Shown in pieces: positions 36,723 to 59,301 of a stretch of DNA of 64,000 nt; the first letter of the stretch is position 1, and the number at the start of each line of letters is the position of its first letter. The DNA comes from a virus. Location of the stretch: positions 11,148 through 75,147 of IMG/VR virus record IMGVR_UViG_3300028388_006015; one strand, given 5' to 3'. Position numbers and translations under genes: made by a program. The notes beneath the pieces were generated by a model. The model did not search any database, had not been told where the DNA came from, and was given only the letters and a program-made list of their open reading frames with translations.

Positions 36723-38315
36723 TTACTGAATGATATGGACGTCGTGCTTTGTCTTGAGATCTTCAACGAGCTGTTGTACCGACAAAACCTTATCTCCATA
36801 AGCTTTTTCCAGATCAGGGTTGTTATCAAACGCCTTTTTCAGTGCTGTCATGTTGTGTGCACTACGACGACCAACTGGAGTGCTTTCTACCGTTTCTAGA
36901 CGATCTGTGAGTTCTTGGATTTGATTCTGAAAGCCCTTTACAATAGTGCCAAAGTTTTCTTTCAATTCATCCTGTGAAGCAGAAAAGTCGTCAAATTTTG
37001 ACGAGAGAACATCTTCAATACCTTTGATGATATTATCAGACGGATTGGTTTGATGTGAAAAATCTTCCAGAGGTGCATTATTTTCACCTTTCGACATTGT
37101 CTGCGAACTAGATTGTCCACCGTTATCTTCTTCATTAACGCCCTCCATTGTCTTATTGGGAGCGCTCATTCCTTGAATGGCCTTAACGAGAGTAGCAATG
37201 GCCTTTTCCATCCTGTCAACCTTTTCCATGGCCTTGTTGAAGTTTTCCATTTCAACAAATTTAGCACCATGGGTGACGTTATTGTCGGTTTTGTTGCTCA
37301 TCTCGACACTTTTTGCGTCAGGACCAGATGATACATCTGAGGGCATAGCTTTTACAATGTTGCCTTCAACGGAAAAACCGAGATCTGTCAATGCTTTCGT
37401 TAGATCTTCGTGAGTAAGTGTATTGTTGGTCGATTGTTGCATCGCTGAACGAATTTTTGCAAAATTATAAATCTTAGAAAATTCAGTGAACGGAATATTA
37501 TGCCTTAGCAATAAATTATAAACGTCACCTTTTGTTAAAACTGATTGCCTAAAATTACTATCTGTAGATTTATTAGACAACGGGGCGTATTTCTTTTCTT
37601 TATCGACACTTTCAAGAATTATTGGCTGATGGCTTTCAATTGTAGCTGCTTTTGCTACTTTGATATTAAAGCTGCGATCTATAGTGATTCGATACCCTTG
37701 ATCATTGGTTACGTCAACAATATACTCTTGACCTCCATCAGCAGGATTCTCTCGAGTGTCAAAAGCCATTTCAGTATCGTCATATTCGCCTTTTATTAGC
37801 GATAGTAACGTATTGCTATTTTTTGGAGTTGGTGTTATTGCACAACCAGTAATCTTGGCTTTCTTTACTTTTCGTGGGTCAAACACGTCGCGTTCTACCA
37901 CTTTTCCTTCTATACTAAAGCCCAGTCGACGATTGGATGAAGATTTTTCTAATGTTTGTGCAAGTGCGTAAACTTTACGTGCTTTTTCGGAATGAGGATA
38001 TAAAAAGCCCTCAACGTGCAATTTTTTACCTTTTACAAATGCCTTTGTTGGTTCGCCCACAATAGATGACGGATCGACACTACCTCTATGGTTGTAGTTG
38101 AAATATCCATGATTGAGAAAAAATGACAGGTCAAAACCAGTAGGGTCGAGCATTTCATCATCCGCATCAAGATCGGGAGTAGACGCTATACCTGCAATCA
38201 TCATTTTACCCTGCTCACTACCATCATCTGCTTTTTGTATCTCAATAGGTACAAAAAACTTAAACTTGTCAGGTACTCCGTTTGTTTTAGAGCGATAATG
38301 TGTATTGTGTAGCAT
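36723..38315 (-). CDS. prohead protease-scaffold fusion
   Basis: GIASTPDLDADDE, GYFNYNH, LGFSIEG, AITPTPKN protease domain, followed by a coiled-coil scaffold rich in Phi-x-K-[AG] sites. Confidence 0.85.
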   Translation of the reverse strand: MLHNTHYRSKTNGVPDKFKFFVPIEIQKADDGSEQGKMMIAGIASTPDLDADDEMLDPTGFDLSFFLNHGYFNYNHRGSVDPSSIVGEPTKAFVKGKKLHVEGFLYPHSEKARKVYALAQTLEKSSSNRRLGFSIEGKVVERDVFDPRKVKKAKITGCAITPTPKNSNTLLSLIKGEYDDTEMAFDTRENPADGGQEYIVDVTNDQGYRITIDRSFNIKVAKAATIESHQPIILESVDKEKKYAPLSNKSTDSNFRQSVLTKGDVYNLLLRHNIPFTEFSKIYNFAKIRSAMQQSTNNTLTHEDLTKALTDLGFSVEGNIVKAMPSDVSSGPDAKSVEMSNKTDNNVTHGAKFVEMENFNKAMEKVDRMEKAIATLVKAIQGMSAPNKTMEGVNEEDNGGQSSSQTMSKGENNAPLEDFSHQTNPSDNIIKGIEDVLSSKFDDFSASQDELKENFGTIVKGFQNQIQELTDRLETVESTPVGRRSAHNMTALKKAFDNNPDLEKAYGDKVLSVQQLVEDLKTKHDVHIIQ

Positions 38316-40651: not shown

Positions 40652-41386
40652 TTAAAAACGAATTGGTGTCCAATTTAATCCAATCCCGACATAAGGTGCG
40701 GGACTTACCGCATTATTATTTAATGTGAATCCGTATCCAACCGAAACCCCAATGCCAAACTTATTGGTAAGTCTGTCGATGATAATAGCTTCACCATCTA
40801 CAATATCAATATATGGATTGTCGGTTGTAATATCAACAACTGAAGAACGCTTCTTAAAAAAGCCGCCCTTACGCTCAGTAATTTGAGAGGTGAGAGTTGC
40901 ATATGTTTTGAATGCAAGGTCGATCGAATCTTGAGTAGCAACAACGCTCCAATCTGCATACGCGTCTTGATTTTCACCATAATATGCATACTCAGGACAG
41001 TCGTTAGTGATTGTATTGTTTACGGGCACAGGAATTTCAACATATTCAGTATCTATTACCTCACGCGTTAATGTTGGAACGCTACCTTTATATTTGAGCT
41101 CAGCAACTAAGCGCGTATAATTGCGAATCAGACGATCTTGCTTCCGCACCTCTTTAAGAGCTTGATTGAGAAGAGAGTCTTTTTCTGAATACGCCCCTTC
41201 AATCTCATTACGATCAAGAACTAATGCTTCAATGCGAGTATGCGTTTGGTTGAGACTGTCTTTGTACGTATTAATAACGTCGGTGTGATAACTTTCAAGT
41301 TCGCGATGAATTCTTTGTTCCCTCGCACAAAATGATACCGATAACACGATACCGATTGCAAGTATGATGAATAGCCACTTTGTCAT
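40652..41386 (-). CDS. spanin-like membrane protein
   Basis: N-terminal TM helix, coiled coil, C-terminal amphipathic beta strands FGIGVSVGYG..PYVGIGLNW ending in Phe. Confidence 0.55.
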   Translation of the reverse strand: MTKWLFIILAIGIVLSVSFCAREQRIHRELESYHTDVINTYKDSLNQTHTRIEALVLDRNEIEGAYSEKDSLLNQALKEVRKQDRLIRNYTRLVAELKYKGSVPTLTREVIDTEYVEIPVPVNNTITNDCPEYAYYGENQDAYADWSVVATQDSIDLAFKTYATLTSQITERKGGFFKKRSSVVDITTDNPYIDIVDGEAIIIDRLTNKFGIGVSVGYGFTLNNNAVSPAPYVGIGLNWTPIRF

Positions 41387-41390
41387 AATA

Positions 41391-41993
41391 TTAATATTGT
41401 TTGATTACGTTTTTGATTACGTCCAAGTCAAGACACATTCCCGCCACTCCAATAACTTCATTATTGCGAAATCGCGGATATTTTTGAACAACTAAAAGTG
41501 TAGTTTCGCCTTCAGGGTTTACAAACTTTTCTACACCAATCCAACTCATTTTATTTTCGACAACCCACTTATTGTTCTCCATATAACGCTCAGCAAATTT
41601 TTGATCATTATATAGATCACTTATCTTTTTGCCAATGCAATCCTTTGCACTCAAATTATAATCATTGAGAAATGTTCGCTCATACTCTTTATTGACATAT
41701 AGCATTACACCATCTATGGATGTAAGCCAATGAGCGTTAACGTGATCATAAGTTGCCGATTCAAAGAACACTATTTGAGATTGTAAGATATATACCTGTT
41801 TTTGCAATTCTCCAATCAACAAGTCATTTCTCTCAACCTCTTGTTTTAATGCCAATCTCTCAGCCTTGTATTCACTAATGATTAATACAAGCTCGTCCAT
41901 ATTTGTTTTTCGTCGCGTTGCCAAGTATGTTAAAAAACCACTAATGACAGTGGACGAGAATATAGCTATAACTAGCTGTAATACATTGTCCAT
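41391..41993 (-). CDS. holin-like TM + coiled coil + PAS domain protein
   Basis: One N-terminal TM then RRK, a heptad coil, then WLTSIDGVMLYVNKEYE..DCIGKKISDLY..KYPRF..VIGVAGMCLD (PAS_4-type). Confidence 0.75.
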   Translation of the reverse strand: MDNVLQLVIAIFSSTVISGFLTYLATRRKTNMDELVLIISEYKAERLALKQEVERNDLLIGELQKQVYILQSQIVFFESATYDHVNAHWLTSIDGVMLYVNKEYERTFLNDYNLSAKDCIGKKISDLYNDQKFAERYMENNKWVVENKMSWIGVEKFVNPEGETTLLVVQKYPRFRNNEVIGVAGMCLDLDVIKNVIKQY

Positions 41994-41999
41994 GGGAAT

Positions 42000-43595
42000 T
42001 TAATTAAAAGCACCACTCTTTAGCTCGTCCTCAAAGGCTTTATAAACGGGGTTTGCATTAAAATCATAAAACTCGCCCTGATCTCCTTCTTCGTTATACT
42101 CATCAATGGCCTCGTTACTTTCTTGTCCACCCATAGCTTGTTGTGAGAGCCATTGAATATATTGAGGATTAAGAACAATATCATCGTCTTCAAGATCACG
42201 AGGAAGACCTGCTTTTTCACGAGCTTCTTTGAGTCCCATAATAGAGCCGACTCTTTTAGCATCAAGTTCTACTTCATCTTTTTCGTTTTCAGAATCAAGA
42301 CCAACAAACTCCAAAACAAATTCGTCAGTTAATGGCTCAATAAGCCACCTATTAAGCTTTCTTTGAATAAAACGCATTAATGGTCTCAATCCTTTATCAC
42401 GACTATATTTCAATCGCGCTTCATTATTTCCTTCAAAAAGAGACTGGCTTCCTGAACTTCCACTAAGATGAAAACCAATCTCACTAGGGTCAATACGATA
42501 TACACTACATGCAATCTTCAACAAGTATTCTTGCCACTTAGAGAATTCCATGTCTCGATTAGACTTTTGCATATCTATCCATTCAAAATCATCAGCCTGG
42601 ATCAATGGAGTCTTCCAGCTATTTTGAACACCCGAAACCATTGACCACCATTCTTGACGAAATTCGCTAAGTCGCGTTTCGTTTACAACACCTGCAGCCT
42701 TCCAAACTCCCTTTGGAGCACTTCCTTGAGAAAAGAAGTTACCATTATGCTGATCACCCCACAACATCCATGTTACAATCTTAATAAGTACCTCCAATTC
42801 ACTCATTCCATACCCATTGCTCGTTAAAGTGTTTTGAGGATTTCTGATACCTAAACACATTTCCCAAGGATAGAAATAAGAGATGATCGTATCCTCATAA
42901 AGCTGAACATATTCAGGAGCATATCCATTAACCTTTTGAATATCAGCACTATCATACGTATGATCGACCTTACGAATAGTTGAGCTGTCGCATGTTACAA
43001 ATTCAGTCGGTCTAAAACGACGATCTTGTACGACCTCGAATGCAGCATGATCAAGAACAAGACTGTCAGAAAGCCACTTTCGAATAAAATCCTCAATATT
43101 ATCACCAACCCACTTCTTATCTTCCACGCTACAATTGAGAATGAATTTTTCCAACTCCCTTACCTTCTTGTTGTTGTACAACTTTTCATTGCCATCTCTC
43201 TTATTGCGTTCTCTACGTACAAAGCGAAATCCAACCTCATATTTTTCCCATGCAGGTTGAAGAAATTCGCACACTTGATCTATTCTCGTTCCAATAACTG
43301 CAGCAATTACAGGCGTTTTGGCAATTTTGCGCAACATTTTTTCAGAAACACCAGCAAAACGTTGTTGGTATCCACGAGTATTGTTGTTGCTATAGGGATC
43401 TGAAATTATTGTTGATCGCTTACTTGTATTGGCTTGTTGTTTCGCACTTTGTTGTAATTGTGCAGATACAGAATATGCCTTCATTATTGAATGAGGGTCG
43501 TTGGATAGCATGGCCTTGTGCAGCACTTCTTGTTGACGTGCTTGTAGGTCTTGTATCTGCTTAGATATCTGTTGTAATTCTGTTAATTCTGACAT
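42000..43595 (-). CDS. portal protein
   Basis: IRNP..GYGMSELE, NFFSQGSAPKG, DMEFSKW..IACSVYRIDPSEIG, GLRPLM, EAREKAGL. Confidence 0.92.
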   Translation of the reverse strand: MSELTELQQISKQIQDLQARQQEVLHKAMLSNDPHSIMKAYSVSAQLQQSAKQQANTSKRSTIISDPYSNNNTRGYQQRFAGVSEKMLRKIAKTPVIAAVIGTRIDQVCEFLQPAWEKYEVGFRFVRRERNKRDGNEKLYNNKKVRELEKFILNCSVEDKKWVGDNIEDFIRKWLSDSLVLDHAAFEVVQDRRFRPTEFVTCDSSTIRKVDHTYDSADIQKVNGYAPEYVQLYEDTIISYFYPWEMCLGIRNPQNTLTSNGYGMSELEVLIKIVTWMLWGDQHNGNFFSQGSAPKGVWKAAGVVNETRLSEFRQEWWSMVSGVQNSWKTPLIQADDFEWIDMQKSNRDMEFSKWQEYLLKIACSVYRIDPSEIGFHLSGSSGSQSLFEGNNEARLKYSRDKGLRPLMRFIQRKLNRWLIEPLTDEFVLEFVGLDSENEKDEVELDAKRVGSIMGLKEAREKAGLPRDLEDDDIVLNPQYIQWLSQQAMGGQESNEAIDEYNEEGDQGEFYDFNANPVYKAFEDELKSGAFN

Positions 43596-43667: not shown

Positions 43668-44165
43668 TTAAACGCCCTCGGCAGATGTATTATTAATCAA
43701 CTCCTGTTCTTCACCACCATTATCATTATCAAAGAAGAAGTGGTATAGCGGATTGATTATATTTATTACCAATGCAATCGCAAAAGCCTCAAATTGACCG
43801 TTTCCTGATATCCAAGCAAACAGTGTCTCTATTAATTGAGCTGCTGCTCCATCAGGAAACGCAATACCTAAACCTACAGGAATCATAAGAAGAACAGTCA
43901 AGGATTGAATCCTAAAATTCATAGATTTTAGAAAATCCCACGACCATTGTTGAGTTTTTGTTAGCAACTTTAATACCGGGTTAAGAAAGTTTGTAATAAG
44001 CAACGCCACAATGGCTCCGATGTTGCCTCCATTAAAAACTTCAAACACCTCTCCTCCTGATACTCCAATATCAAAACCGTTAAGGTTAAATACGAGCAAA
44101 ACGAGCGATATCAAAGATACAAAAAAGTTGCGACTATCAAAAGTTGCATTAATCTTGGTTTGCAT
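43668..44165 (-). CDS. 4-TM membrane protein with internal duplication (holin candidate)
   Basis: Two halves SRNF..NFLNP / SMNF..NIINP, each with two hydrophobic segments; acidic tail. Confidence 0.55.
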   Translation of the reverse strand: MQTKINATFDSRNFFVSLISLVLLVFNLNGFDIGVSGGEVFEVFNGGNIGAIVALLITNFLNPVLKLLTKTQQWSWDFLKSMNFRIQSLTVLLMIPVGLGIAFPDGAAAQLIETLFAWISGNGQFEAFAIALVINIINPLYHFFFDNDNGGEEQELINNTSAEGV

Positions 44166-44170
44166 GACTA

Positions 44171-44746
44171 CTAAAGTTTTTTGCAATGAAAAGTAAGTTG
44201 AATTTTAATGTCTGTTGGAGCGACTCCTCCAGTTCCATCTTTGTTGTTATCAGCACCTCCATGCCATGGAAGAATATAGGCGGCTTTGCGAAAATCTTTA
44301 TCCCATAAATATTGCGCCTCTATTGCTTTTTCGTCAGTGAAAATCTTGATCTTTACAAGACTGTCGTGAATAAATCTAATTTCACCACTAACATCTTGTC
44401 CTCGTTTAACACTTATTTCATTAGGTCTGACGAACTTGCCTTTATCATAGTTAAAATACGGAGCAATATCCCAAGTACCTTTTTCAGGGTTTGATTGGAA
44501 CGTTACAATAGCAGCATCATAATTTGAAGGATTATTCTTGTTAAGATTAACGCCAAATAATTTGCTACTATCTAGTTGATCAGGATCTGGACGTATATCG
44601 TATGGATCGCTTAATATGCGAAATGAAAACTGAATACTATGCGTTTTTCGAACATTAATGCTCTTGAGAAAACGATAGTAAAAACGAGCAACTAAAGCTT
44701 TTACGCTTCTATCTATGTGGTGGCCTTTTTTAATTGTATAGATCAT
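44171..44746 (-). CDS. hypothetical beta-sandwich protein
   Basis: 191 aa; KLFG..PWHGG..AP pattern; start overlaps the upstream stop. Confidence 0.55.
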   Translation of the reverse strand: MIYTIKKGHHIDRSVKALVARFYYRFLKSINVRKTHSIQFSFRILSDPYDIRPDPDQLDSSKLFGVNLNKNNPSNYDAAIVTFQSNPEKGTWDIAPYFNYDKGKFVRPNEISVKRGQDVSGEIRFIHDSLVKIKIFTDEKAIEAQYLWDKDFRKAAYILPWHGGADNNKDGTGGVAPTDIKIQLTFHCKKL

Positions 44747-45339
44747 TGCTTATATAGAATTAATGATTGGTCTAAACTTCTATACTCTACTCTACCAGCA
44801 TTGTAGAGTCGATATAGCTCGTTATCTCCATTATAACCTAAGATCTTTAACCAACTACTTCCTAAAAATCTCAGACTAAACGATTGTGGCCCAACTGTCA
44901 TTGTTGGAGTGGGTTCAAAAGATATCAATGCATTAAAATAATTCTCCCCTCCATCTTCTGAAATTTGCCAATTGCCAGTATAAGATTCAGCTACTGCATC
45001 TGCAGATATATCAAATATACTCACTCCAAACAAATTAAACAAAGAAGTATTTGCATCAACAACGACAGTAATAACCTCAGAGCGATCCCATATATCATTA
45101 ACTTTCAAAGCTAAATCTTCAACTTGATTGTTTACTCTTCGAGATAGCAAATCCATAACTACAGAAGTGTCTTGAGTTTCGTATTGTGTAGTCGTAATTA
45201 TTACACCTTTCTTAAAAGATTGTCCTACATAATAATATCCATTAAGCTCATAAGCAAAGATGCTGTCAGGTGTAGTTTGAGCTTGACCTACTGTGAAAGC
45301 GGACAGAAATAGAAACAAAAAAACGATAATGATTTTCAT
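44743..45339 (-). CDS. secreted protein with Sec signal peptide
   Basis: Probable start 45339 MKIIIVFLFLFLSAFTVGQA-Q. Confidence 0.65.
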   Translation of the reverse strand: MKIIIVFLFLFLSAFTVGQAQTTPDSIFAYELNGYYYVGQSFKKGVIITTTQYETQDTSVVMDLLSRRVNNQVEDLALKVNDIWDRSEVITVVVDANTSLFNLFGVSIFDISADAVAESYTGNWQISEDGGENYFNALISFEPTPTMTVGPQSFSLRFLGSSWLKILGYNGDNELYRLYNAGRVEYRSLDQSLILYKQ

Positions 45340-45352
45340 AATTATTTGTTTT

Positions 45353-46159
45353 TTAAAAGTTGTATCTTGCATAAATCCAATCTCGCACTGACGCAATTTC
45401 TGTATTATTATGCTCATCGTCATAAATTAACAACTCAGCTATATATCCATCCCAAAAGCCTGAAGCCCCATCTCTACTAGAACCTATACAGCTACCATTA
45501 ACCAAAAACTCACCCCAAGATTCAGACAATGAGTTAAAAGCTATACTTGTTCCTGGAGATACTACTGTCTTAAATTGACTACCAGAGTCGTCAATCATTA
45601 CAACATACAATCTAGCAGTATTAATACTAGAACTGGATACTTTTGAAAATGCTTGAGTTTGACCCCTTACTAAAAACTCCTGAAACGATGCTGTTGATGC
45701 GTCAGATCTAATTATAAGACCTCCACTATTAGCTCCATTAAAACTAAATATTCGTTTATCGACAACATTAGCATCTGCTTTTCCTACAACATAGACAGTA
45801 ATATGAGCGTTATTTGGCAAGAAGTCTCCGGTAGTTAACTCAAATCTATCATTAGCTCCATCAAAAACATAAGATGCTTGATTATTCATCACACCTACTA
45901 TTGGAGCAAAAGTAGGTCTAAATGATGATATTGTTTGCTCATAAACAACGGTAGGATCTGCCCAATTAATTGGAGAGCTTACTGATTGACCGTTAGTATA
46001 AGTATCTATTTCAGCAGAGGCCTGAATGTGCACTTTTAAATTTGCAGTAACAGGAGGAGCTTCATATAAACCACCCCCATGCTGTCCCAACCACATTCCT
46101 TGCTGAGAAATCCCAACAAGAGGTAATAGCCATAATATGATTAATACTAGTCTATTCAT
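45353..46159 (-). CDS. secreted LamG/concanavalin-like lectin protein
   Basis: MNRLVLIILWLLPLVGIS-Q signal; YVFDGAND, WDGYIAELLIYD, WIYARY LamG motifs; TAATG coupling to the giant gene. Confidence 0.75.
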   Translation of the reverse strand: MNRLVLIILWLLPLVGISQQGMWLGQHGGGLYEAPPVTANLKVHIQASAEIDTYTNGQSVSSPINWADPTVVYEQTISSFRPTFAPIVGVMNNQASYVFDGANDRFELTTGDFLPNNAHITVYVVGKADANVVDKRIFSFNGANSGGLIIRSDASTASFQEFLVRGQTQAFSKVSSSSINTARLYVVMIDDSGSQFKTVVSPGTSIAFNSLSESWGEFLVNGSCIGSSRDGASGFWDGYIAELLIYDDEHNNTEIASVRDWIYARYNF

Positions 46160-49100
46160 TATTCTATTGTTGTTAAGCATTTATATACGCCTGAGTTTCC
46201 GTAACAAGTCACCATCGCTTCTGTAGCTATTGTTATAGTACCTAAATCGGTACCGTCTAATGAATTGAATTCTGATGGAAAAGTAATATCCGTATCGGCA
46301 CTCATACCGGAAAAGTGGAAGTTATATACAGGAGCTGTACCTGCCAATGTAACTTCATTGTTAATAGTTAGAGTACAGTCGTTATTACCTGTATTAGTTA
46401 TATAGTAACTAGCGTTATAATAGCCCTCCATATCTAATGTAATAGTCGATCCTGTAATATTCCCAGTCAACAATTTATTTGTTAATTTCTCAAGGTAGTC
46501 GTATACCGCATTTTGGCTAGGCGCATTTGCCGTATCGCCATCCCATCCAGATCCGTAAGCATCATCCTCAACTCCTCCTACATCACCTTTAGACGCCATT
46601 AAATCCCAATCACTGGCCAAAGGACCAGGTTCTTCAGTTGTTGATGCTGCCGTGCATACCCAAGCACTTCCATCATTTTCAACTGCTTGATTTATCAAAT
46701 ACGTTCCTGCAGACCAAGCACCTTCCCAAGTAATATCACCATCGGCACCTGGAGATCCTGCAGGTCCGGCAGGTCCTTGCTCTCCCTGAAGTGCTTCAAT
46801 TTTCATAATATTTATATACGTTGCTGTATCGGAAACATTAAATACTCCACTATCTTCTATGGAAATAGCGTATAATTTAAGTTTATCCCCGCCATTAAAT
46901 GTTTGAGTGTAAGTCAACGTAACAGCGCCATCATCTTGATTGCCATCTCTAGTAACATAGTCATTTGTACTAATGATAGAGCTATATCCTGACCCTTCAT
47001 CTAAATGAAGACTTGCTGTAAGTTCGTTTCTACTAATAGCTCCGTTACCTGCTACTTGAAAAGATATTTGATATAAAGCAGTGTCTAATAATGTAATCTC
47101 TTCACCACTTACCGTATACACTGAATCATCAGTTTCGTAGGGAGTATCCCACGATAAAAATGTACCACTACTTGCAATATTACTAGTAGTTGTAGTAAAT
47201 GCTCCCATAAACGAGAATGAACTAGGAATTGTTGTTTCAGGCGTTATCCATTTAAGACTATCTAAACCATCATTGATTCCTAAATAAGCACCTGCAACAG
47301 CAGATCCGGCAATTGGGTGTCTTTCCATATCATCGTCACTCGATCTAAAGCCTAACAATGACTCAGGAACACCATCATTAAACGTTTCGTACTTATCTAA
47401 TTCCACTCGCCCGTCTGATTGTAGTGTCATAACATTCTGAGTGGTCAATCCATTAGTAGTCCAAAAATTAAGATCTGATGAGCGACTCGATCCATTCCAA
47501 TTACCAACTGCACTAGATTCAATAAACGACATTGGATAAAATGTACTAGACTCGTAACCTCCAAACAAAATTGCTCCTAATTTTTCACGATCAAAAATAC
47601 TTGCATCTGAAGATCCAATAGTTAAGTGATTACTTCCTGATATAAAAGATGATCCGCCGGTACTACTAGGTGCTTCTAAGAATAAAGAGCTGTATGATAA
47701 AGTACTATCTCCATCCTCCCACTTAAATCTTGTAAGGTTCGATCCGGCATCTGGATGTATTGCAAAATCACCATCTACAAAAAACTGATAACTACTATCC
47801 GCAGTACCAATTGATGCTCTTCCTAATCTATAAACTGCACTCAAATACGTACTATCTCCCTCAAATCTCCAATCATCATCTCCTCCCCCTGAATCGCTTT
47901 GTAGATCTTCAATTGGAACGGCTAAATTAGATTCTCCATCCACCAATCTTAAAGAATCTCCATCTACCTCAAAACTAATATTATATCCTGATGTATCAGG
48001 AGATCCTCCTCCTGTTGGAGTGTCGTAGAAAATAAACGTCACGTCACTATCAGTGCTATCTGGTACCCATGCACCACGAACATAAACGGTCTTTGCTGTT
48101 GTTGCTGATACTTCAGGAACACTACCATCATTAAATAAGTGTGCATCTAAAAGCGTATATGTTCCACCTGCTGGATCTAATATTTGCAATACTGGTTTGG
48201 ATCCAACTGTTGTAAATTCGCCAATTAACGTAACGTCGTTTAGACGAGATGAAATTAACGTTGCTTCATCAACACTACGAAAAACACCTCTCAGCTCAAA
48301 AGTAGCGCCTGTAGGTGGCGTAAAGCTTCGAGGAGCAAATAATGGATCGTCAATTGCACCAGTATAATCAAGATTGTATGTGAATTCGCCCTCATAACGA
48401 ATAAATAGATTCTCACAATATGCATTAGGAAAATATCCTGTTTGCATAAGAGGACTGTTGCCAAAATATTGATCTATATTTACTTCAATTGCACTATTGC
48501 GCAATGTATCTGCTCCTGTTCCCCAGTCAAAAGCAAACAATCCATATTCATTAACATGACTGTCAAATCCGCCATTAGTTGTCAGGTTACTGACACGATC
48601 ACTAATCATATTACCGACATTCCATCTAAGAGATGTGTTTTCCCATCTATGCGATCCGGTAACCTGAAAAATACTGAAATCTTGATCAATTATATTCCAA
48701 TATCCAATATTGATTTCGTGAGATTGATTGATGCATGTGTCAGTAAGAAAATAAAAGCCTCCCTGACGATATTGATTAAGTCTTTGAATGTTAAATTGCG
48801 TGTTTTCAAAACCTGTAGTACCGTCCCACTGACAAACAAAATTGTCTGTTGATATTTTATCAATCGTAATATTTGCAATCACTCCCTGTTCAAGCTCAAA
48901 TAATGGAACTGATGTAGTGTTTGTCAAAAACGTATCAACAATCTCCTTAGCTTCAAATATTAAACTTTTGCCTGTTGTTGAATTCATATAGGCAATTTCT
49001 CCATCATTTCTTATTGTAATTTTTCCCCGACCAAGTACCGTAATGCCATATCCATTATTATCATACCATAATGGAGAAGTTGATGCGTTAATGATCTCAG

Positions 49101-52100
49101 CGCCCTCAAATAAATAATATTGAAGATCGGGAGCTGTAATTAAATTATTAGAAGTTGCTGAATTCTTGATAATATCGTAATCAGGATACTCTCCCGTATA
49201 CGTCAATGTTGTAGCGATATATCTTCCCGGTAATACTTGAATTTGATCTGAACTATCTGCAGCCGCAGCAGCAGCCCAAGGATCTTTCCATGGACGAAGA
49301 TAGTTTCCCTTTTCTGCAGTTGCGTTATTACCGTTTTCCGCAACAAATAGAATATCTCCATAATTTTCTTCTCCCACAAACGTACTTAACGTATCATTGC
49401 CATCTACAAGATATAACGTATCATTATCTACATACATATCAATGTTATATCCTGATGTGTCCGTATTGTCAAGATACGATGCAAGATCGGCTTCAAGAGT
49501 TCCGTCCTGATCAGTAATTTTTAAAGTATCGTTTTCGATTATAAGATTGTAGTTCGATCCAGAAGTATCTAAACCTATTCCATCTTGAAGTGATGCGAGA
49601 TCTTCAGTTAATGTGCCATCTTGATCAGTCAGTTCGAGTACTGTTCCGTTAAGTACTAAGCTATAATTACTTCCAGACGTATCGAGTCCAATTCCATCTT
49701 GCAGATCTGGAATGTAAATGGCAAGATTAGTGCTTCCATCAATAATTCTCAAAGAATCTCCATCAATTTCAAAAGATATGTTATATCCGGAAGTGTCTGT
49801 ATTTTCTATAGGAAATACTTGCCATGCCGTTCCGTCCCAATAATTAAACAAGTCAAGATCTGTATTCCAAAAAAAAGCACCATCATATACAACAGACGGA
49901 AGTGTAGGCCATAAATCTCGAGCTACTGTACTTGCATTAGTAGGTACGATAACACCTTCCGATGTGACTTTAACAGTCTCTAATTGAATTTCATGTCCAC
50001 TATCTACATCTAATCTTAAATCACCACTGATTTCATCTATTACTACTCCACCATCAAAATTATATATCGCAAAACTATCTAGAGGTGAATGACCTTCGAG
50101 ATAATAGTTAACAGCATCATCTGAGCTATATGGTGTAACTACCCTTATAGCTCTTTCGGACAATCCTGCGTCCGTATTCAGATCAAACTGAAGCCAATAA
50201 TCTTCAGGAACATTAACGTTCATTACAGCAGGTAAACTATTACCATCATTGCGAATGTCAAAAATACCGTTACTGTCTGCTACAATTACAAATAACTCAC
50301 CTAACTGATCTGTTAATTTAAGAGTATCGTTTTCAAGAACGAAACTATAATTTGAACCACTTGTATCTGTGCCTACTAATGATAATAAATCAACTATTAT
50401 AGTTCCATCTTGATCTGTAACTTCTAGGTCTGTACCGTTCAATACAATTGAATAATTAGATCCTGATGTATCAACACCTACCCCATCCTGTAGGGATGCG
50501 AGATCTTGTATTAGTGTACCATTTTGATCGGTTAATTCTAATTGAGTTCCATTAAGCGTTAATGTATAATTACTACCTGACGTATCTACTCCTATACCGT
50601 CTTGAAGATCAGGAATGTATACAGCTAAATTCGTACTACCATCAACAACTCTCAAACTATCGCCGTCAATCTCAAACGATATATTATAGCCCGAAGTGTC
50701 TGTATTGTCAAGAAGATCTGACAGGTCTACATCAGTGCCATTTTCTATATCTAAATCACCCAATCCATTATACGTTAAACCTTGATCGTCTGTATTGTCT
50801 AAATACGCAGATAGATCAACAACCAATAGTCCACTTTGATCAACAATCTTTAACGAATCATTCTCTATAACTAATGAGTAATTTGAACCTGAAGTGTCAG
50901 TACCAACTAAGGATGCTAAATCTTGTATTAACGTTCCTCCTCCATCCACTAACTCAAGATCTGTCCCGTTAAGAGTTAAAGATGTGTTATATTCGTTTGT
51001 TGGGTCTGCATCAGCATCATCAACAGAATCTTCAAATTGAACTTGACCACCATCTACTAACGATATGATAATTGTAGTTCCAGTAGAGTCAATAGACAAA
51101 TCTTGAGTGTCAGTGTTATCGAGATATGGCGACAAAATCACAGCAAAGCTTCCATTCTGATCTTGAATATATAAGCTGTCATTCGATATATAAAAATTAT
51201 AATTTGAGCCTGATGTATCAGTACCTATTCCATCTTGAAGTGACGCCAAATCAGCAGTAAGAGTACCGTTCTGATCAAGCAATTCTAGATCTGTACCGTT
51301 AAGTATTAATGAATAATTTGAACCTGACGTATCCGTTCCAATCCCATCCTGAAGATCAGGGATATAAACGGCGAAGTTAGTATTTCCGTCTGTCAATCTC
51401 AAACTGTCTCCATCTATTACAAATGAAGTATTATATCCAGAAGTATCGGTATTGTCGAGATACGCAGACAAGTCAACTATTAGCGTACCGTTTTGATCTG
51501 CTAATTTCAAAGAATCATTTTGTATGATTAAAGAGTAATTACTGCCCGAACTATCTGTACCGACCAAAGAAGACATGTCTGTAATTATAGTACCATTTTG
51601 ATCTGTAGTTTCAAGATCAGTGCCATTTAATAGTATTGAATAGTTCGAGCCTGAAGTATCCGTTCCAACACCATCTTGAAGGTCTGGAATATAAACAGCC
51701 AAACTCGTTTGACCATCAGTTATTCGTAGACTGTCACCATCAATAACGAATGAGACATTATATCCTGAGGTGTCGGTATTATCAATATAAATATCGTTCA
51801 GTGTTGCTGTGTCTGCTACTAAAGGATCGCCTAATGTTCCATCACCAGAAATACCGTATCCTGTTTCAGCAACTTGGTTTCCCCAATCATCTCCATCCAC
51901 TGTAGCTGCAGATAACGGCTTAAACATACCATCGCCAAACAACACCATAGTATCTTGTCCTATCTGTGGTTGAGGAACAAGTCCTCTTTGACCTGCAGTA
52001 GATGAAGTCGCGCCCACCATTACATTGACAGTATCACCTACTCCATTAGTTATTGACATTAATCCTGTAGCTGCATCGTATGATAAATCTTGCTCATCTA

Positions 52101-53382
52101 CTCCTAAATCTGGAATATAAACAGCAAAATTTGTTTGACCGTCGATTATACGTAAACTATCTCCGTCAATTTCAAAACTGTAATTATAACCACTACTATC
52201 AATTCCTCCACCACCTGCAAATACTCTCCATGCTTGATCAATAAACATACCAATAGTATCTTGTGCGGCTGTTATAAAGAAATCTTGCTCTCTTGGTGCA
52301 AGTGTATTGGTATCAACAACCTCATCAAGAATAAAAAAGTCATTATCGCACACATTGTAGTATCTGCCACTGCTAATTATATACAATCGCAATTCTGCAG
52401 TTGATGAACGAATTGTGTCAGGACCGGCTAATGTAAAAAAACTACATCCTTGACGTAAAATGTCTGTACTGTCTGGTGATGTGATTCTAAATGGCGTTCC
52501 TAATTCTGTACTTGAACCTCGCACGTAAATAATTTTGCCATCATAACTTGTATCGGGAAGTGTTGGAAAGATAATATCAACAGGAGAGCCTGTAAATGCA
52601 CCGCCATATATAGATATGATGTCGCTCGTGTCAAGAACCTCAATTGGCAATGTGTAAGAGTCGCCAAACGTTAGTCTTTTATGGAACACACGATTATCTC
52701 TAATGTATGGAATCAAAGAAGCAAAAAGGATACCGCCTTGATCTTCAAGATACAAAGTGTCATTTTGCACATACATATCGTAGTTCGTTCCAGATGTATC
52801 CGTTCCAATGCCATCTTGAATATCAGGTATGTAAATAGCTAAATTCGTCTGACCGTCTGTTATGCGTAAACTGTCTCCATCCACTTCAAACGAAACGTTA
52901 TAACCTGAAGTGTCTGCACCACTAAATTCAAAACGATCAATCAACCACGCACGATGAGTTTCTAAACATGCCGACATTGAAACAGGCAAACCTGGAATAT
53001 CAGGAGGAAGTGTGAAATTATCAGTTGCACGATATAACGCAGCATGACCTCTTCTTGGTGCGCGATTAGCAACATAACCACCAACAGTATCACTAACAAC
53101 ATTTACAGTAGTTGCTGCACCTGAAGATGTGATTGTCTTTATTCGATATAAATCGCACTTGATATCCATTATGCGATCGTCCACTTCAATATCTCTCCAC
53201 GTAAATCCTGTAACTGAAACAGTGGGATCGCGAAATGTGAACTTAATAGTAAATGTGCTATCATCTACTACTGTTGGAGTTTCGAGAATGTATGCTAAAC
53301 CACTCACATCGCGCAATGATGTTTGTGCAAAGCTCGATGTGAGTAGTGATATGAATAATAAAATACTTGCTACTCGCTTCAT
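46159..53382 (-). CDS. giant (~2407 aa) signal-peptide-bearing fibre/adhesin
   Basis: MKRVASILLFISLLTSSFA-Q; ~19 DTSG[YS]N repeats; tail-fibre motif GATSSTAGQRGLVP; beta-helix-type start ILFVAENGNN..PWK; C1q-like segment; collagen GEQGPAGPAGSPGADG; WEGAW CBM-like; fibre-type C-terminus. Confidence 0.8.
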   Translation of the reverse strand: MKRVASILLFISLLTSSFAQTSLRDVSGLAYILETPTVVDDSTFTIKFTFRDPTVSVTGFTWRDIEVDDRIMDIKCDLYRIKTITSSGAATTVNVVSDTVGGYVANRAPRRGHAALYRATDNFTLPPDIPGLPVSMSACLETHRAWLIDRFEFSGADTSGYNVSFEVDGDSLRITDGQTNLAIYIPDIQDGIGTDTSGTNYDMYVQNDTLYLEDQGGILFASLIPYIRDNRVFHKRLTFGDSYTLPIEVLDTSDIISIYGGAFTGSPVDIIFPTLPDTSYDGKIIYVRGSSTELGTPFRITSPDSTDILRQGCSFFTLAGPDTIRSSTAELRLYIISSGRYYNVCDNDFFILDEVVDTNTLAPREQDFFITAAQDTIGMFIDQAWRVFAGGGGIDSSGYNYSFEIDGDSLRIIDGQTNFAVYIPDLGVDEQDLSYDAATGLMSITNGVGDTVNVMVGATSSTAGQRGLVPQPQIGQDTMVLFGDGMFKPLSAATVDGDDWGNQVAETGYGISGDGTLGDPLVADTATLNDIYIDNTDTSGYNVSFVIDGDSLRITDGQTSLAVYIPDLQDGVGTDTSGSNYSILLNGTDLETTDQNGTIITDMSSLVGTDSSGSNYSLIIQNDSLKLADQNGTLIVDLSAYLDNTDTSGYNTSFVIDGDSLRLTDGNTNFAVYIPDLQDGIGTDTSGSNYSLILNGTDLELLDQNGTLTADLASLQDGIGTDTSGSNYNFYISNDSLYIQDQNGSFAVILSPYLDNTDTQDLSIDSTGTTIIISLVDGGQVQFEDSVDDADADPTNEYNTSLTLNGTDLELVDGGGTLIQDLASLVGTDTSGSNYSLVIENDSLKIVDQSGLLVVDLSAYLDNTDDQGLTYNGLGDLDIENGTDVDLSDLLDNTDTSGYNISFEIDGDSLRVVDGSTNLAVYIPDLQDGIGVDTSGSNYTLTLNGTQLELTDQNGTLIQDLASLQDGVGVDTSGSNYSIVLNGTDLEVTDQDGTIIVDLLSLVGTDTSGSNYSFVLENDTLKLTDQLGELFVIVADSNGIFDIRNDGNSLPAVMNVNVPEDYWLQFDLNTDAGLSERAIRVVTPYSSDDAVNYYLEGHSPLDSFAIYNFDGGVVIDEISGDLRLDVDSGHEIQLETVKVTSEGVIVPTNASTVARDLWPTLPSVVYDGAFFWNTDLDLFNYWDGTAWQVFPIENTDTSGYNISFEIDGDSLRIIDGSTNLAIYIPDLQDGIGLDTSGSNYSLVLNGTVLELTDQDGTLTEDLASLQDGIGLDTSGSNYNLIIENDTLKITDQDGTLEADLASYLDNTDTSGYNIDMYVDNDTLYLVDGNDTLSTFVGEENYGDILFVAENGNNATAEKGNYLRPWKDPWAAAAAADSSDQIQVLPGRYIATTLTYTGEYPDYDIIKNSATSNNLITAPDLQYYLFEGAEIINASTSPLWYDNNGYGITVLGRGKITIRNDGEIAYMNSTTGKSLIFEAKEIVDTFLTNTTSVPLFELEQGVIANITIDKISTDNFVCQWDGTTGFENTQFNIQRLNQYRQGGFYFLTDTCINQSHEINIGYWNIIDQDFSIFQVTGSHRWENTSLRWNVGNMISDRVSNLTTNGGFDSHVNEYGLFAFDWGTGADTLRNSAIEVNIDQYFGNSPLMQTGYFPNAYCENLFIRYEGEFTYNLDYTGAIDDPLFAPRSFTPPTGATFELRGVFRSVDEATLISSRLNDVTLIGEFTTVGSKPVLQILDPAGGTYTLLDAHLFNDGSVPEVSATTAKTVYVRGAWVPDSTDSDVTFIFYDTPTGGGSPDTSGYNISFEVDGDSLRLVDGESNLAVPIEDLQSDSGGGDDDWRFEGDSTYLSAVYRLGRASIGTADSSYQFFVDGDFAIHPDAGSNLTRFKWEDGDSTLSYSSLFLEAPSSTGGSSFISGSNHLTIGSSDASIFDREKLGAILFGGYESSTFYPMSFIESSAVGNWNGSSRSSDLNFWTTNGLTTQNVMTLQSDGRVELDKYETFNDGVPESLLGFRSSDDDMERHPIAGSAVAGAYLGINDGLDSLKWITPETTIPSSFSFMGAFTTTTSNIASSGTFLSWDTPYETDDSVYTVSGEEITLLDTALYQISFQVAGNGAISRNELTASLHLDEGSGYSSIISTNDYVTRDGNQDDGAVTLTYTQTFNGGDKLKLYAISIEDSGVFNVSDTATYINIMKIEALQGEQGPAGPAGSPGADGDITWEGAWSAGTYLINQAVENDGSAWVCTAASTTEEPGPLASDWDLMASKGDVGGVEDDAYGSGWDGDTANAPSQNAVYDYLEKLTNKLLTGNITGSTITLDMEGYYNASYYITNTGNNDCTLTINNEVTLAGTAPVYNFHFSGMSADTDITFPSEFNSLDGTDLGTITIATEAMVTCYGNSGVYKCLTTIE
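47900..52920 (-). repeat. coding repeats (~35-38 aa units, ~19 copies)
   Basis: Two alternating unit types: DTSGYNxSFxIDGDSLRxxDGxTNxAxYIPDLQDG and DTSGSNYSLxLNGTxLELxDQxGTLxxDL. Confidence 0.85.
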
Positions 53383-53384
53383 TA

Positions 53385-54173
53385 TTAAATATTGCCGACA
53401 ACTATGCTCCAATTGTCATAGTCATCTACGTTTCTGAATTTGATGTCAATGCGATATACATCAACACCACCATCATCATAATTCTCATAATGAATGACGT
53501 CGCGTCTCGGAGTTGGTGGTGCAGTGTCGCCGTCAGTATATGGCAAAGCATCAGTGGGAGGATTGGTATCGTTGTTGTCTCGTTGCCAAAAATCGGCCTG
53601 TGGAAACACTGGACGTTCAACATTACCTTGAGCGGCTATTGGTTTTCCCCAATCGCAATCACGAACAAGAATGCGCAGTACAAAATCAGTTGCAGCGATT
53701 TCTGTTGTTGTGTGATGTATTGTTGCGCCATGTAATGCAACGTCAGAAGGAATCGTTAACGTACCGACATTACCAGACAGATTATATGTGATTCCTATTC
53801 CGTGAGAAGAGATATCTGCCTGATTAGAAATGTATCTACTAACACCTCCTCCAGAAGCAGGCGTTATAAATACAACTGGACTAGTCCATGCACTTCCATC
53901 ATAAAACGACAAACCATCATTTCCTAGGCCGTCTGCATCTGCAAGTACTGAAATGCTACCTTGAGGTGGATCGACTTCTGCATCACGAGCAGCAATATCT
54001 GCATGTTCGTACACTTCGTTGGTTGCATCGGAACTTACAGATGCTCCAAAATATGTACTTAGCGTACTCAGCTCAATCCCACGAATTACGTACGAATCAA
54101 GCTGAGTATACAATTTCATCGACCCCAATAGCTGACCAATCGAAAGTGTTGGTTGATCTTTTGGATATGGCAT
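53385..54173 (-). CDS. hypothetical protein, probably virion-associated
   Basis: 262 aa, acidic and beta-rich; no signal peptide; immediately upstream of the giant gene. Confidence 0.55.
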   Translation of the reverse strand: MPYPKDQPTLSIGQLLGSMKLYTQLDSYVIRGIELSTLSTYFGASVSSDATNEVYEHADIAARDAEVDPPQGSISVLADADGLGNDGLSFYDGSAWTSPVVFITPASGGGVSRYISNQADISSHGIGITYNLSGNVGTLTIPSDVALHGATIHHTTTEIAATDFVLRILVRDCDWGKPIAAQGNVERPVFPQADFWQRDNNDTNPPTDALPYTDGDTAPPTPRRDVIHYENYDDGGVDVYRIDIKFRNVDDYDNWSIVVGNI

Positions 54174-54183
54174 GTTTAGTTAT

Positions 54184-54765
54184 TTACAATGCGTAAGTAA
54201 TAGAAAACTGGGGCGCTGCAACATTATTTTTACCTGTAGCTGCGCTTGTAGCCACTCCTTCATCGACATCAACAGTAACCTCACCATCTCCAGCAGGTGT
54301 GATGTCTGCAGTGAATTCAATATTGTCTGAAGTAGCAAGGTTACCAGCACTACCATTTCCAACAGTGATATCTCCTACAACAAAGCCACTGACCTCTTCA
54401 GAGAATGTGATTGTGACTTCAAATGGAGAAGTGCTGGTTGGATCGTCTTCTGCAGTTGTAATCGCAACTGTAACACCAGTGGTTTGCTCATCAACAAGAT
54501 CGGACGTTGTTTCTCCATCAATGACGTAACCAACATCATACGACTCATCGACCATAAAATAATTGGCGATCTCACTAAGAGTCACCTCGAATCCTTCTTG
54601 AAATGGCATTGTTTCGAGATCATCGGCAAATTTATCGTTGACAGTAATTTGATGAATGGAGATCTCTTTTCCATTTCCACCTGTTTTAAAGCCCTCGATT
54701 TCAACACGAAGTTGAGATGCACCAGAACCTTTACTTGTTACGATTGATACTCTATTGGAATTCAT
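54184..54765 (-). CDS. Ig-like (Big-type) domain protein, possible capsid decoration
   Basis: C-terminal PFEVTITFSEEVSGF..DITVGNG..FTADITPAGDGEVTVDV..N.A. Confidence 0.75.
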   Translation of the reverse strand: MNSNRVSIVTSKGSGASQLRVEIEGFKTGGNGKEISIHQITVNDKFADDLETMPFQEGFEVTLSEIANYFMVDESYDVGYVIDGETTSDLVDEQTTGVTVAITTAEDDPTSTSPFEVTITFSEEVSGFVVGDITVGNGSAGNLATSDNIEFTADITPAGDGEVTVDVDEGVATSAATGKNNVAAPQFSITYAL

Positions 54766-56895: not shown

Positions 56896-59301
56896 TTAAC
56901 TTTGCAGTGTTACCATTGCAATCTTCTTCCAGTCACGTCCTGTACCTTTCATTTGCTGCTGAATCTTGATCATATTACCAAGTGTACGTGCATTCAGCTT
57001 ACCTTCACGAATCTTATGGGCATTTTCTTCAATGAATGATACTGCTTCGTTACGTTCTTGTTCTGTTGTCATCAATTCCTTGCCATCTGCATCCTCAATT
57101 GGCATCTTATGAACAATCTGCTTCAGACGCTCAACTGTTTCGTCAACTGTCATTGACAAGTCACATGCGAGAGCACGACTATCAACGAGTGGCTGTGGCA
57201 TATCTTGAGGTGCAAGGTTGGAGATGAAAATAACACGACCTGTAAATGCAAAACGCTTAGGCACTATTGCAACACCTTTTGCATTTTCATGACCTTCTTT
57301 GGATGTTTTAATATCTCGACCACTGTCGTATACTACTGTTCCATCACCACTTGTATCAAGTGCTCCTTTAAAAATGTTAACACTAGTCTCGTCTTGTAGT
57401 ACACTGTCACAATCATCAAATACGATTGTTTTGCCATTGTGCTCGTACAGTGCTTTAAACATCGCGGTAGGAGTAGATTTGCCTGTGATCTTGACAAAAT
57501 CGTATTCTTCAGGTTGATTAACATCGTGCCCTTGATCGTACGGATTGAATTCTACGCGATTGTGACGCTTCATCACCTGCTTTAACGTGTAAGTGTTGTG
57601 CGTTACTGTATACCCTTCTGTTAAATATAGTGACTCAACATCTGAGACAGTAATACAAGTACATTCACCATCTTGTACTTGAGTAATATCGACAATGGCT
57701 TGTCCTCTAACATTCTTACGACGTTTTTTTGACTGCCATATATCTGCCTTTCTTGATAATCGAAATGGACAGTATTCAGGTGGCATTTGAAAGTTAATAG
57801 CCCAAGCATCGCCACTTGTACGCTTTTGCTTAGTAAGAGTAGCTTTGCGACCAAATGACTTAACTATCTCGTGAAAATCTTTAGCAAGAGTATCGCTAAC
57901 AGTGTAATATATGCACACACCATTCTTGCCGATAGTACCATCTGTATCCATCATTCCTTGAATTAACGCATGACGTTGCTGAATACTACCGTAACGATAT
58001 TGTTCAGGAATAAACTTTGTGTGACTGTCTTTGTTCGCCAGACCAAATGATTGTAATGCTTTTGATAGATGAACTCGATCTTCACCAAGAATACGATAGC
58101 TGTTGCTATTTTTAGATGAAAGATTGAGATGACCAAACGCCTTATGAAATTCACTATCATCCTCGTCGCCAACACTAATCAATAATGCATGATTGTCGAT
58201 TCGAGTTAGACATCCATCTCCCAAGAAATAGCCTAATAGATAAGGGTCTATTTCTTGATCTTTTTCAGTGTGCTGAGCAGGTTGTGCGTATGGAATGAGA
58301 TATCGCCACTCTGGCCAAATCTTATTGCCATTTTTAGTTGTCCCCTCTTCTCGCAGTCGTAATTTACGCTCCATTAATTGTTCTGTGGTCAGAACTCTCC
58401 AGCGACCTCCGTGCTTACGCTTTTTTGTATCTTTGCAAAACCACGATGTTTTGTCCCACACCTTCCATAAGTGATCTCGACCAGCAGGTAATATAGTACC
58501 ATCCATCAATTTGATTTCAAACACCTCTTTTGTGCCTTGAGGGTGAACTTGAAGTACGACAGTCTCCTCGCCGTTTGCATTTAAAACCTTATCTCCAGCT
58601 TTAACTTCTCCGTGAGTAGTAAATCCATTTGGAGTATAGATTTTTGATGAGTTCAACATCTCTTTACCAACTCCACCCGTACCAAATGCAATAACTGACT
58701 TAGAAAGTCCAGTGGCACACATATCAAGAAATACATCATATGCATCCCAACGCTGTTCTACGTCAATTTGAGGAGCAGCCTGATCAATAATTTTTGGATC
58801 AACACTACGTTTTGGGGTAGGTGCTACTTTCGTTCCAATACCAAATTCCTTGGAGATCTGATGAACGCGAGAATAATTTGCTCCCGTTAAAGAAGCGATC
58901 TGCTTTTTGTCTGTCATTCCTAACTTAAACAACCCGCGAATCTTGGCACTTTGATTTGTGTTTGCATTGATAATGCTGTCAATTTTATCTTCAACGGAAA
59001 CACTCTTTTTGTGCTTAACTGGTTTTTGCTCGTCAGTTTTGACATACACTGTTCTGCGATGACCTCTCTTATCAACAATTTGCTTACGTTGTAGCTTAGC
59101 AATGTCTTTCTTGGCTTTTTCAAGTACATCTTCATCAATTGCTCCCTCATTAAAAGATTTCTGTATCGCATTAATATACGTAGCAATATCCTTTTCAAGC
59201 CAAATGTGAGAGTAGCTTTTTTTAAGTTGTTCTAGAGTCGGCAGATCATTCTCTACGAACATTGATTTGTTTATATTGATGTTGAGCGTCGTAAATTCCA
59301 T
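56896..59301 (-). CDS. HTH + AAA-type P-loop ATPase containing an intein
   Basis: Walker A GTGGVGK|T split by the intein; GKSTP..LY, IVFDDCD Walker B, KGALD, FTGRVIFISN, SRA. Confidence 0.85.
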   Translation of the reverse strand: MEFTTLNININKSMFVENDLPTLEQLKKSYSHIWLEKDIATYINAIQKSFNEGAIDEDVLEKAKKDIAKLQRKQIVDKRGHRRTVYVKTDEQKPVKHKKSVSVEDKIDSIINANTNQSAKIRGLFKLGMTDKKQIASLTGANYSRVHQISKEFGIGTKVAPTPKRSVDPKIIDQAAPQIDVEQRWDAYDVFLDMCATGLSKSVIAFGTGGVGKEMLNSSKIYTPNGFTTHGEVKAGDKVLNANGEETVVLQVHPQGTKEVFEIKLMDGTILPAGRDHLWKVWDKTSWFCKDTKKRKHGGRWRVLTTEQLMERKLRLREEGTTKNGNKIWPEWRYLIPYAQPAQHTEKDQEIDPYLLGYFLGDGCLTRIDNHALLISVGDEDDSEFHKAFGHLNLSSKNSNSYRILGEDRVHLSKALQSFGLANKDSHTKFIPEQYRYGSIQQRHALIQGMMDTDGTIGKNGVCIYYTVSDTLAKDFHEIVKSFGRKATLTKQKRTSGDAWAINFQMPPEYCPFRLSRKADIWQSKKRRKNVRGQAIVDITQVQDGECTCITVSDVESLYLTEGYTVTHNTYTLKQVMKRHNRVEFNPYDQGHDVNQPEEYDFVKITGKSTPTAMFKALYEHNGKTIVFDDCDSVLQDETSVNIFKGALDTSGDGTVVYDSGRDIKTSKEGHENAKGVAIVPKRFAFTGRVIFISNLAPQDMPQPLVDSRALACDLSMTVDETVERLKQIVHKMPIEDADGKELMTTEQERNEAVSFIEENAHKIREGKLNARTLGNMIKIQQQMKGTGRDWKKIAMVTLQS
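57595..58662 (-). mobile_element. class 3 intein (356 aa) with LAGLIDADG homing endonuclease
   Basis: Starts EMLNSSKIYTPNG; block B DHLW; LLGYFLGDG and QGMMDTDG; block F CTCITV; ends VTHN before Thr+1. Confidence 0.88.

Follow-up and report, generated by a model that had tools for sequence, protein, structure and literature searches.

The DNA analysed here is a 64,000-nucleotide stretch (hereafter the window) of a 75,147-bp virus record (IMG/VR IMGVR_UViG_3300028388_006015), corresponding to bases 11148–75147 of that record; all coordinates are given in window numbering. Within it lies a module of three consecutive genes, all on the minus strand, each of which encodes a protein that begins with a predicted Sec-type signal peptide (leader) followed by glutamine (Gln). 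The first gene (46159–53382) opens with an ATG and encodes a protein of 2407 amino acids (aa) rich in D, T, G, and S, referred to as the giant. The second gene (45353–46159) encodes a LamG-like protein of 268 aa and the third (44743–45339) a protein of 198 aa. The genes are tightly packed: the giant starts 2 nt past the stop of the upstream gene, its own stop overlaps the start of the LamG-like gene (TAATG, read directly from the sequence), 13 nt separate the LamG-like gene and the 198-aa gene, and the stop of the 198-aa gene overlaps the start of the next gene. A sequence-only reading of the window had reported three packed genes with Sec-type leaders ahead of Gln, the first two coupled through TAATG, and its coordinates, leaders, and coupling all proved right.

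The leader of the giant, MKRVASILLFISLLTSSFA↓QTS (the arrow marks the predicted cleavage site), occupies aa 1–19 (53326–53382, minus strand) and consists of MKR, a 14-residue hydrophobic core, and SFA↓Q; an alternative TTG start at 53412 would give only a longer n-region. The leader of the LamG-like protein, MNRLVLIILWLLPLVGIS↓QQG (aa 1–18; 46106–46159, minus strand), ends in GIS↓QQ, and that of the 198-aa protein, MKIIIVFLFLFLSAFTVG(QA)↓Q (about aa 1–20; 45280–45339, minus strand), ends in GQA↓Q. Common to all three are a short basic n-region with K/R, an uncharged hydrophobic core of 12–15 residues, small residues at positions –3 and –1, and Gln at +1. Leaders were called with a purpose-made heuristic for the n-, h-, and c-regions, applied to the 75 non-nested open reading frames (ORFs) of the 75,147-bp genome. 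Outside the module, strong flags were raised for two of 72 ORFs, a multi-transmembrane protein (43668–44165) and a protein whose leader ends in Cys (40652–41386). Against this background (2/72), the chance of three adjacent leaders is approximately 1.6e-3 over the genome, with Gln at +1 not yet counted.

Gln at +1 (the Q-rule) is a trait specific to Bacteroidota substrates of signal peptidase I (SPase I), most of which expose a Gln; its conversion to pyroglutamate by a glutaminyl cyclase of the periplasm stabilises extracytoplasmic proteins (PMC5837995, PMC10653852). The three leaders look like genuine Bacteroidota Sec/SPase I signals, and it is very probable, judged from sequence, that all three are exported and cut by SPase I. 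A Bacteroidota host is indicated by these leaders together with the kinship of the portal protein, to which Chryseobacterium phage MA9V-3 and the Bacteroides DAC phages come closest among isolates (37–38% identity). Two further routes were considered and rejected. No C-terminal domain of the type IX secretion system (T9SS) was found at E ≤ 0.1 with NCBIfam and Pfam in the whole giant, its last 246 aa, or the LamG-like and 198-aa proteins, and T9SS cargo was rejected as no C-terminal sorting domain of type A or B was detected; lipoproteins were rejected as none of the three cleavage sites has a lipobox Cys. With neither a T9SS domain nor a lipobox, display of the fibre on the cell surface, which the sequence-only reading had entertained, is not supported.

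Anatomy of the giant and its partners

The giant had been described from its sequence as a protein of about 2400 aa assembled from fibre parts, and the parts named (a GATS..AG..GLVP motif, a collagen stretch, C1q-like and CBM-like segments, and a C-terminus of fibre type) could all be located; the positions that follow are on the minus strand. Directly after the leader lies an N-domain of 137 aa (aa 20–156; 52915–53325), for which no relatives were detectable by word-indexed search or Pfam, and no sequence homology was detected to the N-domain of the MAT fibres of Bdellovibrio bacteriovorus, which are Sec-exported trimeric fibres with a signal peptide, a conserved N-domain, and phage-like tips (PMC10769870). 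The remaining protein includes a repeat unit of 36–38 aa (‘DTSG(Y/S)N...’) present in about 19 copies in several blocks, with a main array at aa 537–1040 (50263–51774) and further units at aa 157–230, 395–431, 1196–1340, and 1796–1830. Inserts without assignment interrupt the repeat blocks between aa 157 and 1340, and the GATS..AG..GLVP motif, followed by LFGDGMF, is found at aa 457–470 (51973–52014). For the region from aa ~1340 to 1800, the sole match was a weak tblastn match to a fibre of a prophage-like element (L010, discussed below).

The C-terminal portion of the giant is composed of several modules. Module X (aa 1830–2160; 46903–47895) has a confident core at about aa 1925–2055, and its model (aa 1830–2165) has a mean predicted local distance difference test (pLDDT) score of 59, rising to 74–90 in the core. 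The best PDB matches (Foldseek) were the tips of the MAT fibres Bd2439 and Bd1334, with the L-shaped fibre of phage T5 (C-terminus) next; the matches to the MAT tips have E-values of 7e-5 to 4e-4 with a template modelling (TM) score of only ~0.3, on a model that is only partly confident. A TNF/C1q-like trimeric jelly-roll domain (aa 2055–2195; 46798–47220) comes next. The AlphaFold2 model of aa 2055–2407 has a mean pLDDT of 76, its first 141 residues resemble TNF-family and C1q jelly rolls (Foldseek E = 2e-8, TM by target 0.7–0.8), and a viral structure library returned many Caudovirales collagen-repeat, C1q-domain, minor-tail, and tail-fibre proteins. The jelly roll is followed by a collagen-like G-x-y stretch (aa 2200–2216; 46735–46785), a Trp-rich module resembling CBM5/12 (aa 2217–2270; 46573–46734) that is common to hundreds of leaderless phage collagen-fibre proteins, and a C-terminal beta-sandwich tip (aa 2310–2407; 46162–46455). 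Searches with the sequence of the giant returned a weak collagen match only (Pfam, eight segments) and one collagen match (tblastn against 50,697 phage records); searches of PDB sequences gave no match.

Trimerisation is implied by the TNF-like and collagen parts, and the giant is therefore, by its modelled domains, a long mosaic trimeric fibre of phage-fibre modules. The collagen and Trp-rich unit and the TNF/C1q-like and T5-like domains are shared with classical tail fibres (collagen-like fibres, T5 pb1, and C1q minor tail proteins), which lack signal peptides and are put together in the cytoplasm; the giant differs from a classical cytoplasmic fibre in that it possesses the fibre modules, but a leader too. 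Bacteroidota O-glycosylation sequons, D-(S/T)-(A/I/L/V/M/T), occur 34 times in the giant, mostly within the repeats (GDSLR, NDSLK, and NDTLY). Their density (14 per 1000 aa) is the maximum of the genome (median, 2.2), though the enrichment is weak evidence because a D/S/T-rich composition alone predicts about 20.

The sequence-only reading had assigned a LamG lectin to the gene that follows the giant, an assignment borne out by two comparisons. The 268-aa protein matched Pfam Laminin_G_3 (PF13385) over the full model (positions 1–151 of 151) with 26.7 bits, against a cut-off of 27.6, and in the Atlas it obtained a feature score of 0.98 and TM scores of 0.75–0.79 to Laminin_G_3 clusters of like size, several of them viral. 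On these model-based matches, the protein has a LamG/ConA-like lectin fold. No close relatives of it were found by word-indexed search or by tblastn against the 50,697 phage records. For the 198-aa protein no fold was assigned (Atlas model pLDDT 0.51, matches under 0.85). A complex between the fibre and the LamG-like protein is a guess.

Leaders and leader modules among relatives

Leaders were also conserved among homologues. A word-indexed search identified ten giants of 1349–3302 aa that share mainly the repeats, almost all of which have a leader and then Gln. With the C-terminal 578 residues of the giant as query, a full HMMER search returned 1219 relatives. Among full-length relatives with module X, a leader was present in 27 of 31 and a leader with Gln in 19 of 31, compared to a leader in 14 of 112 relatives with only the TNF-like, collagen, Trp-rich, or tip modules, many of which are typical leaderless phage collagen fibres. 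The module-X relatives carry a Cys-rich domain right behind the leader (EPxCW...GWCGCC). The leader sequences themselves have diverged across divergent homologues, with the leader as a feature kept. Module X thus goes with leaders and the other modules with ordinary fibres, and the giant therefore joins both kinds of module. A leaderless 909-aa sipho-type fibre (8456–11185 of contig L012) has a C-terminal tip with 56% identity to that of a leader-bearing 3302-aa giant (P0005), so that fibres with and without leaders exchange tips.

These distributions bear on the possibility that the hydrophobic N-termini do not serve export but are spurious predictions, tags for assembly, or leaders that a phage protease removes, in which case all three proteins would assemble in the cytoplasm. 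Phage structural proteins do draw false positives from signal-peptide predictors, with capsid proteins mentioned (PMC10367356), and the leaders here were called by heuristic. Even so, an unused leader is very unlikely, as the complete set of leader features, from the K/R n-region and 12–15-residue uncharged core to the small –3/–1 residues and Gln at +1, occurs in three of three proteins and is kept among divergent homologues despite the divergence of the leader sequences, while the Cys-rich domain behind the leader in the module-X relatives would suit an oxidising compartment.

The same arrangement of leader-bearing genes is predicted in two unrelated phages. The first (L004), a sipho-like IMG/VR contig of 54 kb, has a tape-measure gene and tail genes of its own and encodes leader-bearing proteins of 395 aa, 1482 aa (a giant), and 287 aa, the last two with stop/start coupling; its giant shares the repeats and a GxS..GLVP motif with the 2407-aa giant. 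In the second (L007), the genes lie downstream of the one for the major head protein: a leader-bearing giant of 2733 aa comes first, and after it a fibre protein of 847 aa or more that has a leader as well. The accessory genes of the three phages showed no sequence conservation among them. Scans of viral contigs by portal and by the metagenomic homologues P0006 and P0013 gave no match, nor did alignment of the repeats against metagenome contigs.

A survey of about 185,000 species genomes located module X at two loci only; these are integrase-bearing prophage-like elements of Saprospiraceae metagenome-assembled genomes (MAGs), and the same kind of element occurs on two metagenome contigs and one IMG/VR contig. 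In the prophage-like elements L009–L011 and L013, the leader-bearing fibre lies directly before holin and endolysin. Repeat-sharing relatives occur in Flavobacteriia, as a Zobellia galactanivorans ‘beta strand repeat-containing protein’ and in a Flavobacteriales MAG, and would be expected if the module were a recently captured host surface-adhesin operon without a role for the phage. Such a capture is nonetheless highly improbable: the G+C content and strand of the module agree with the rest of the phage, the minus strand of which carries nearly all genes; start/stop coupling to the adjoining phage genes is tight; the two module-X loci are both prophage-like; and the collagen and Trp-rich modules are typical of phages.

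The elements L009, L010, L011, and L013, along with L008, constitute a syntenic family of roughly 20–28 kb, several with an integrase, from Saprospiraceae MAGs, metagenomes, and IMG/VR. The largest gene of the family encodes a leader-plus-Gln fibre with module X, preceded in L010 and L011 by a short paralogue that likewise has a leader and shares the Cys-rich N-domain. In the parts of these elements that were fetched, the encoded proteins are small and very basic, and neither a terminase, a portal, nor a tape measure could be recognised; the family may represent an undescribed virus group.

Proposed export, assembly, and fate of the fibre

In the textbook view, the particles of tailed phages, including the fibres, are assembled in the cytoplasm. 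The explanation favoured here, held with roughly even confidence and by analogy, is that the giant would be an accessory fibre that matures in the periplasm and joins particles at lysis. The host Sec system would translocate each precursor, and SPase I would cut before the Gln, which would most likely be capped as pyroglutamate by the host periplasmic glutaminyl cyclase. The fibre would fold in the periplasm, with disulfides, pyroglutamate, and perhaps Bacteroidota O-glycans on hand, and the LamG-like and 198-aa proteins would be co-exported partners acting as adhesin, chaperone, or adaptor. Only when the envelope is breached at lysis would the fibre meet the cytoplasmically built myovirus particles, on which it would dock as an accessory besides the leaderless baseplate fibres of the tail module. 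The virion fate is favoured because of analogues in Cellulophaga phages, the fibre-typical modules, and the position of such genes in other phages.

The Cellulophaga baltica phages phi18:3 and phi10:1, a podovirus and a siphovirus, provide indirect support for the earlier suggestion that the fibre might be added to virions at lysis. In phi18:3 (NC_021794), gp085, gp086, and gp087 have leaders ending in GYS↓Q, VSA↓Q, and LNA↓Q, respectively, and are recorded as a virion structural protein, a structural protein, and a tail protein ‘based on experimental MS/MS proteomics analysis’ (MS/MS, tandem mass spectrometry); a small membrane protein and an endolysin come after them. In phi10:1 (NC_021802), gp091–gp095 all possess a leader and Gln; the tail genes immediately precede them, and the gene of a small membrane protein comes next; gp091–094 carry the MS/MS note, with products that include ‘pectate lyase’ and ‘tail fiber protein’. 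The remaining MS/MS virion proteins of both phages are leaderless. The MS/MS statements are those of the GenBank record notes; by these, virion preparations have contained fibre-like proteins of Bacteroidota phages that bear leaders. As in the window, consecutive leader-plus-Gln genes for fibre-like or pectate-lyase proteins occur in a Bacteroidota phage, but the Cellulophaga proteins are smaller (317–785 aa), and their place in the virion is annotated by MS/MS; the phage analysed here is uncultured.

Several points weigh against the virion fate. None of the three proteins resembles those of the Cellulophaga phages in sequence (blastp, E ≤ 0.01), so that the virion fate is a matter of analogy only, and MS/MS of a virion preparation may detect co-purifying envelope proteins. 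The leaders are predicted, through the heuristic, and for the giant of this phage the place in the virion is likewise drawn from the analogues; the docking partner on the particle would be hypothetical. A full leaderless baseplate and fibre set is encoded elsewhere in this myovirus, so the phage does not need the giant fibre. Lastly, the module is not found near the portal in MA9V-3 or the Bacteroides DAC phages, the nearest isolates, which fits an accessory or moron role too.

The leaderless tail fibres and the absence of the module from the closest isolates also suit the main alternative, in which the module is exported with the same leaders, never joins the virion, and acts on or from the infected cell as a large moron. 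Its products could constitute a periplasmic or envelope-bound fibre, by analogy with the MAT fibres, or could be a glycan-binding or -cutting factor freed at lysis that alters adhesion, aggregation, superinfection, or the diffusion of progeny through host polysaccharide. The predicted architecture of the giant parallels that of the cell-surface MAT fibres, in which a signal peptide is followed by a beta-rich N-domain of about 130 aa, a long trimeric fibre, and chimeric tips; the N-domain of the giant corresponds to the MAT anchor domain by position. MAT fibres are, however, encoded by the cell and displayed on its own surface, and many end in a peptidase S74 chaperone domain that is absent from the giant. 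Exported morons and exclusion proteins (lambda Lom/Bor, T5 Llp, and Cor) are phage proteins of the envelope that depend on Sec and whose genes often neighbour those for fibres or lysis, but these are small outer-membrane proteins or lipoproteins, compared to a 2407-aa trimeric fibre with a lectin partner. Phages of Porphyromonas gingivalis encode five Q-rule proteins of unknown function that are likewise predicted SPase I substrates with Gln at +1, were read by the authors as host-modifying, and were not reported as fibre modules (PMC10367356).

That the module remains apart from the virion is nevertheless rather unlikely. Neither a T9SS C-terminal domain, a lipobox, nor a beta-barrel is available for passage beyond the periplasm, a 7.2-kb gene would be costly for a moron, a leader protein occupies the place expected of a receptor-binding protein in several other phages and elements, and the Cellulophaga analogues are annotated by MS/MS as virion proteins. 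In view of the Cellulophaga records, the P. gingivalis phage Q-rule proteins (PMC10367356), and the MAT fibres (PMC10769870), the statement of the sequence-only reading that no system of this type had been described was too strong. A literature search found no paper on Sec routing of the fibres or structural proteins of tailed phages.

Extended beyond this phage, the periplasm-matured accessory fibre suggests, tentatively, that Bacteroidota tailed phages may send some virion fibres via Sec for docking at lysis, a two-compartment assembly that would involve here an extra fibre and a lectin partner. A conserved Sec leader on the fibre modules of many unrelated Bacteroidota phages implies a second compartment for assembly, and, if periplasmic maturation is true, host-derived pyroglutamate, disulfides, and O-glycans could harden the fibres for the outside. 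The idea bears on the expression of receptor-binding proteins of Bacteroidota phages in host-range work, on the recognition of fibres in viromes, in which a gene with a leader may be set aside as one of the host, and on the coupling of lysis timing to infectivity. It is testable now, as the cultured Cellulophaga phages hold leader-bearing, MS/MS-annotated examples.

The phage and the neighbouring genes

PHROG profiles identify a contractile-tailed phage (myovirus), with a large terminase (9901–11586), a leaderless tail-fibre gene (15072–17498), a baseplate wedge (20162–21358), a tail sheath (29728–31341), a major head protein (35122–36066), a prohead protease (36723–38315), and a portal (42000–43595). 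An 801-aa protein (56896–59301) also has PHROG matches to ‘terminase large subunit’ (E = 8e-33), as well as to primase and helicase-loader; the terminase at 9901–11586 is the clearer of the two, and the two genes are separate.

The three-gene module is packed among late genes, between a protein with an immunoglobulin-like (Ig-like) Big_12 domain and the portal. A scan for promoters and terminators was uninformative, with counts equal to those of shuffled sequence. Directly upstream of the giant is a leaderless 262-aa protein (53385–54173) that is fibre-like by eye, with no family found, and beyond it a leaderless 193-aa protein (54184–54765) with the bacterial Ig-like Big_12 domain (E = 1.7e-14); these two may be a particle-side adaptor or decoration protein. 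Two genes downstream of the module, the multi-transmembrane protein (43668–44186, minus strand, scored as 43668–44165 in the leader scan), for which no family was found, is possibly related to lysis. Two membrane-associated genes come just downstream of the portal. The product of 41391–41993 combines an N-terminal transmembrane segment with a PAS fold (Pfam PAS_4, E = 7e-6), and the 244-aa protein (40652–41386), whose hydrophobic leader ends in Cys, may by its sequence be a lipoprotein or spanin-like.

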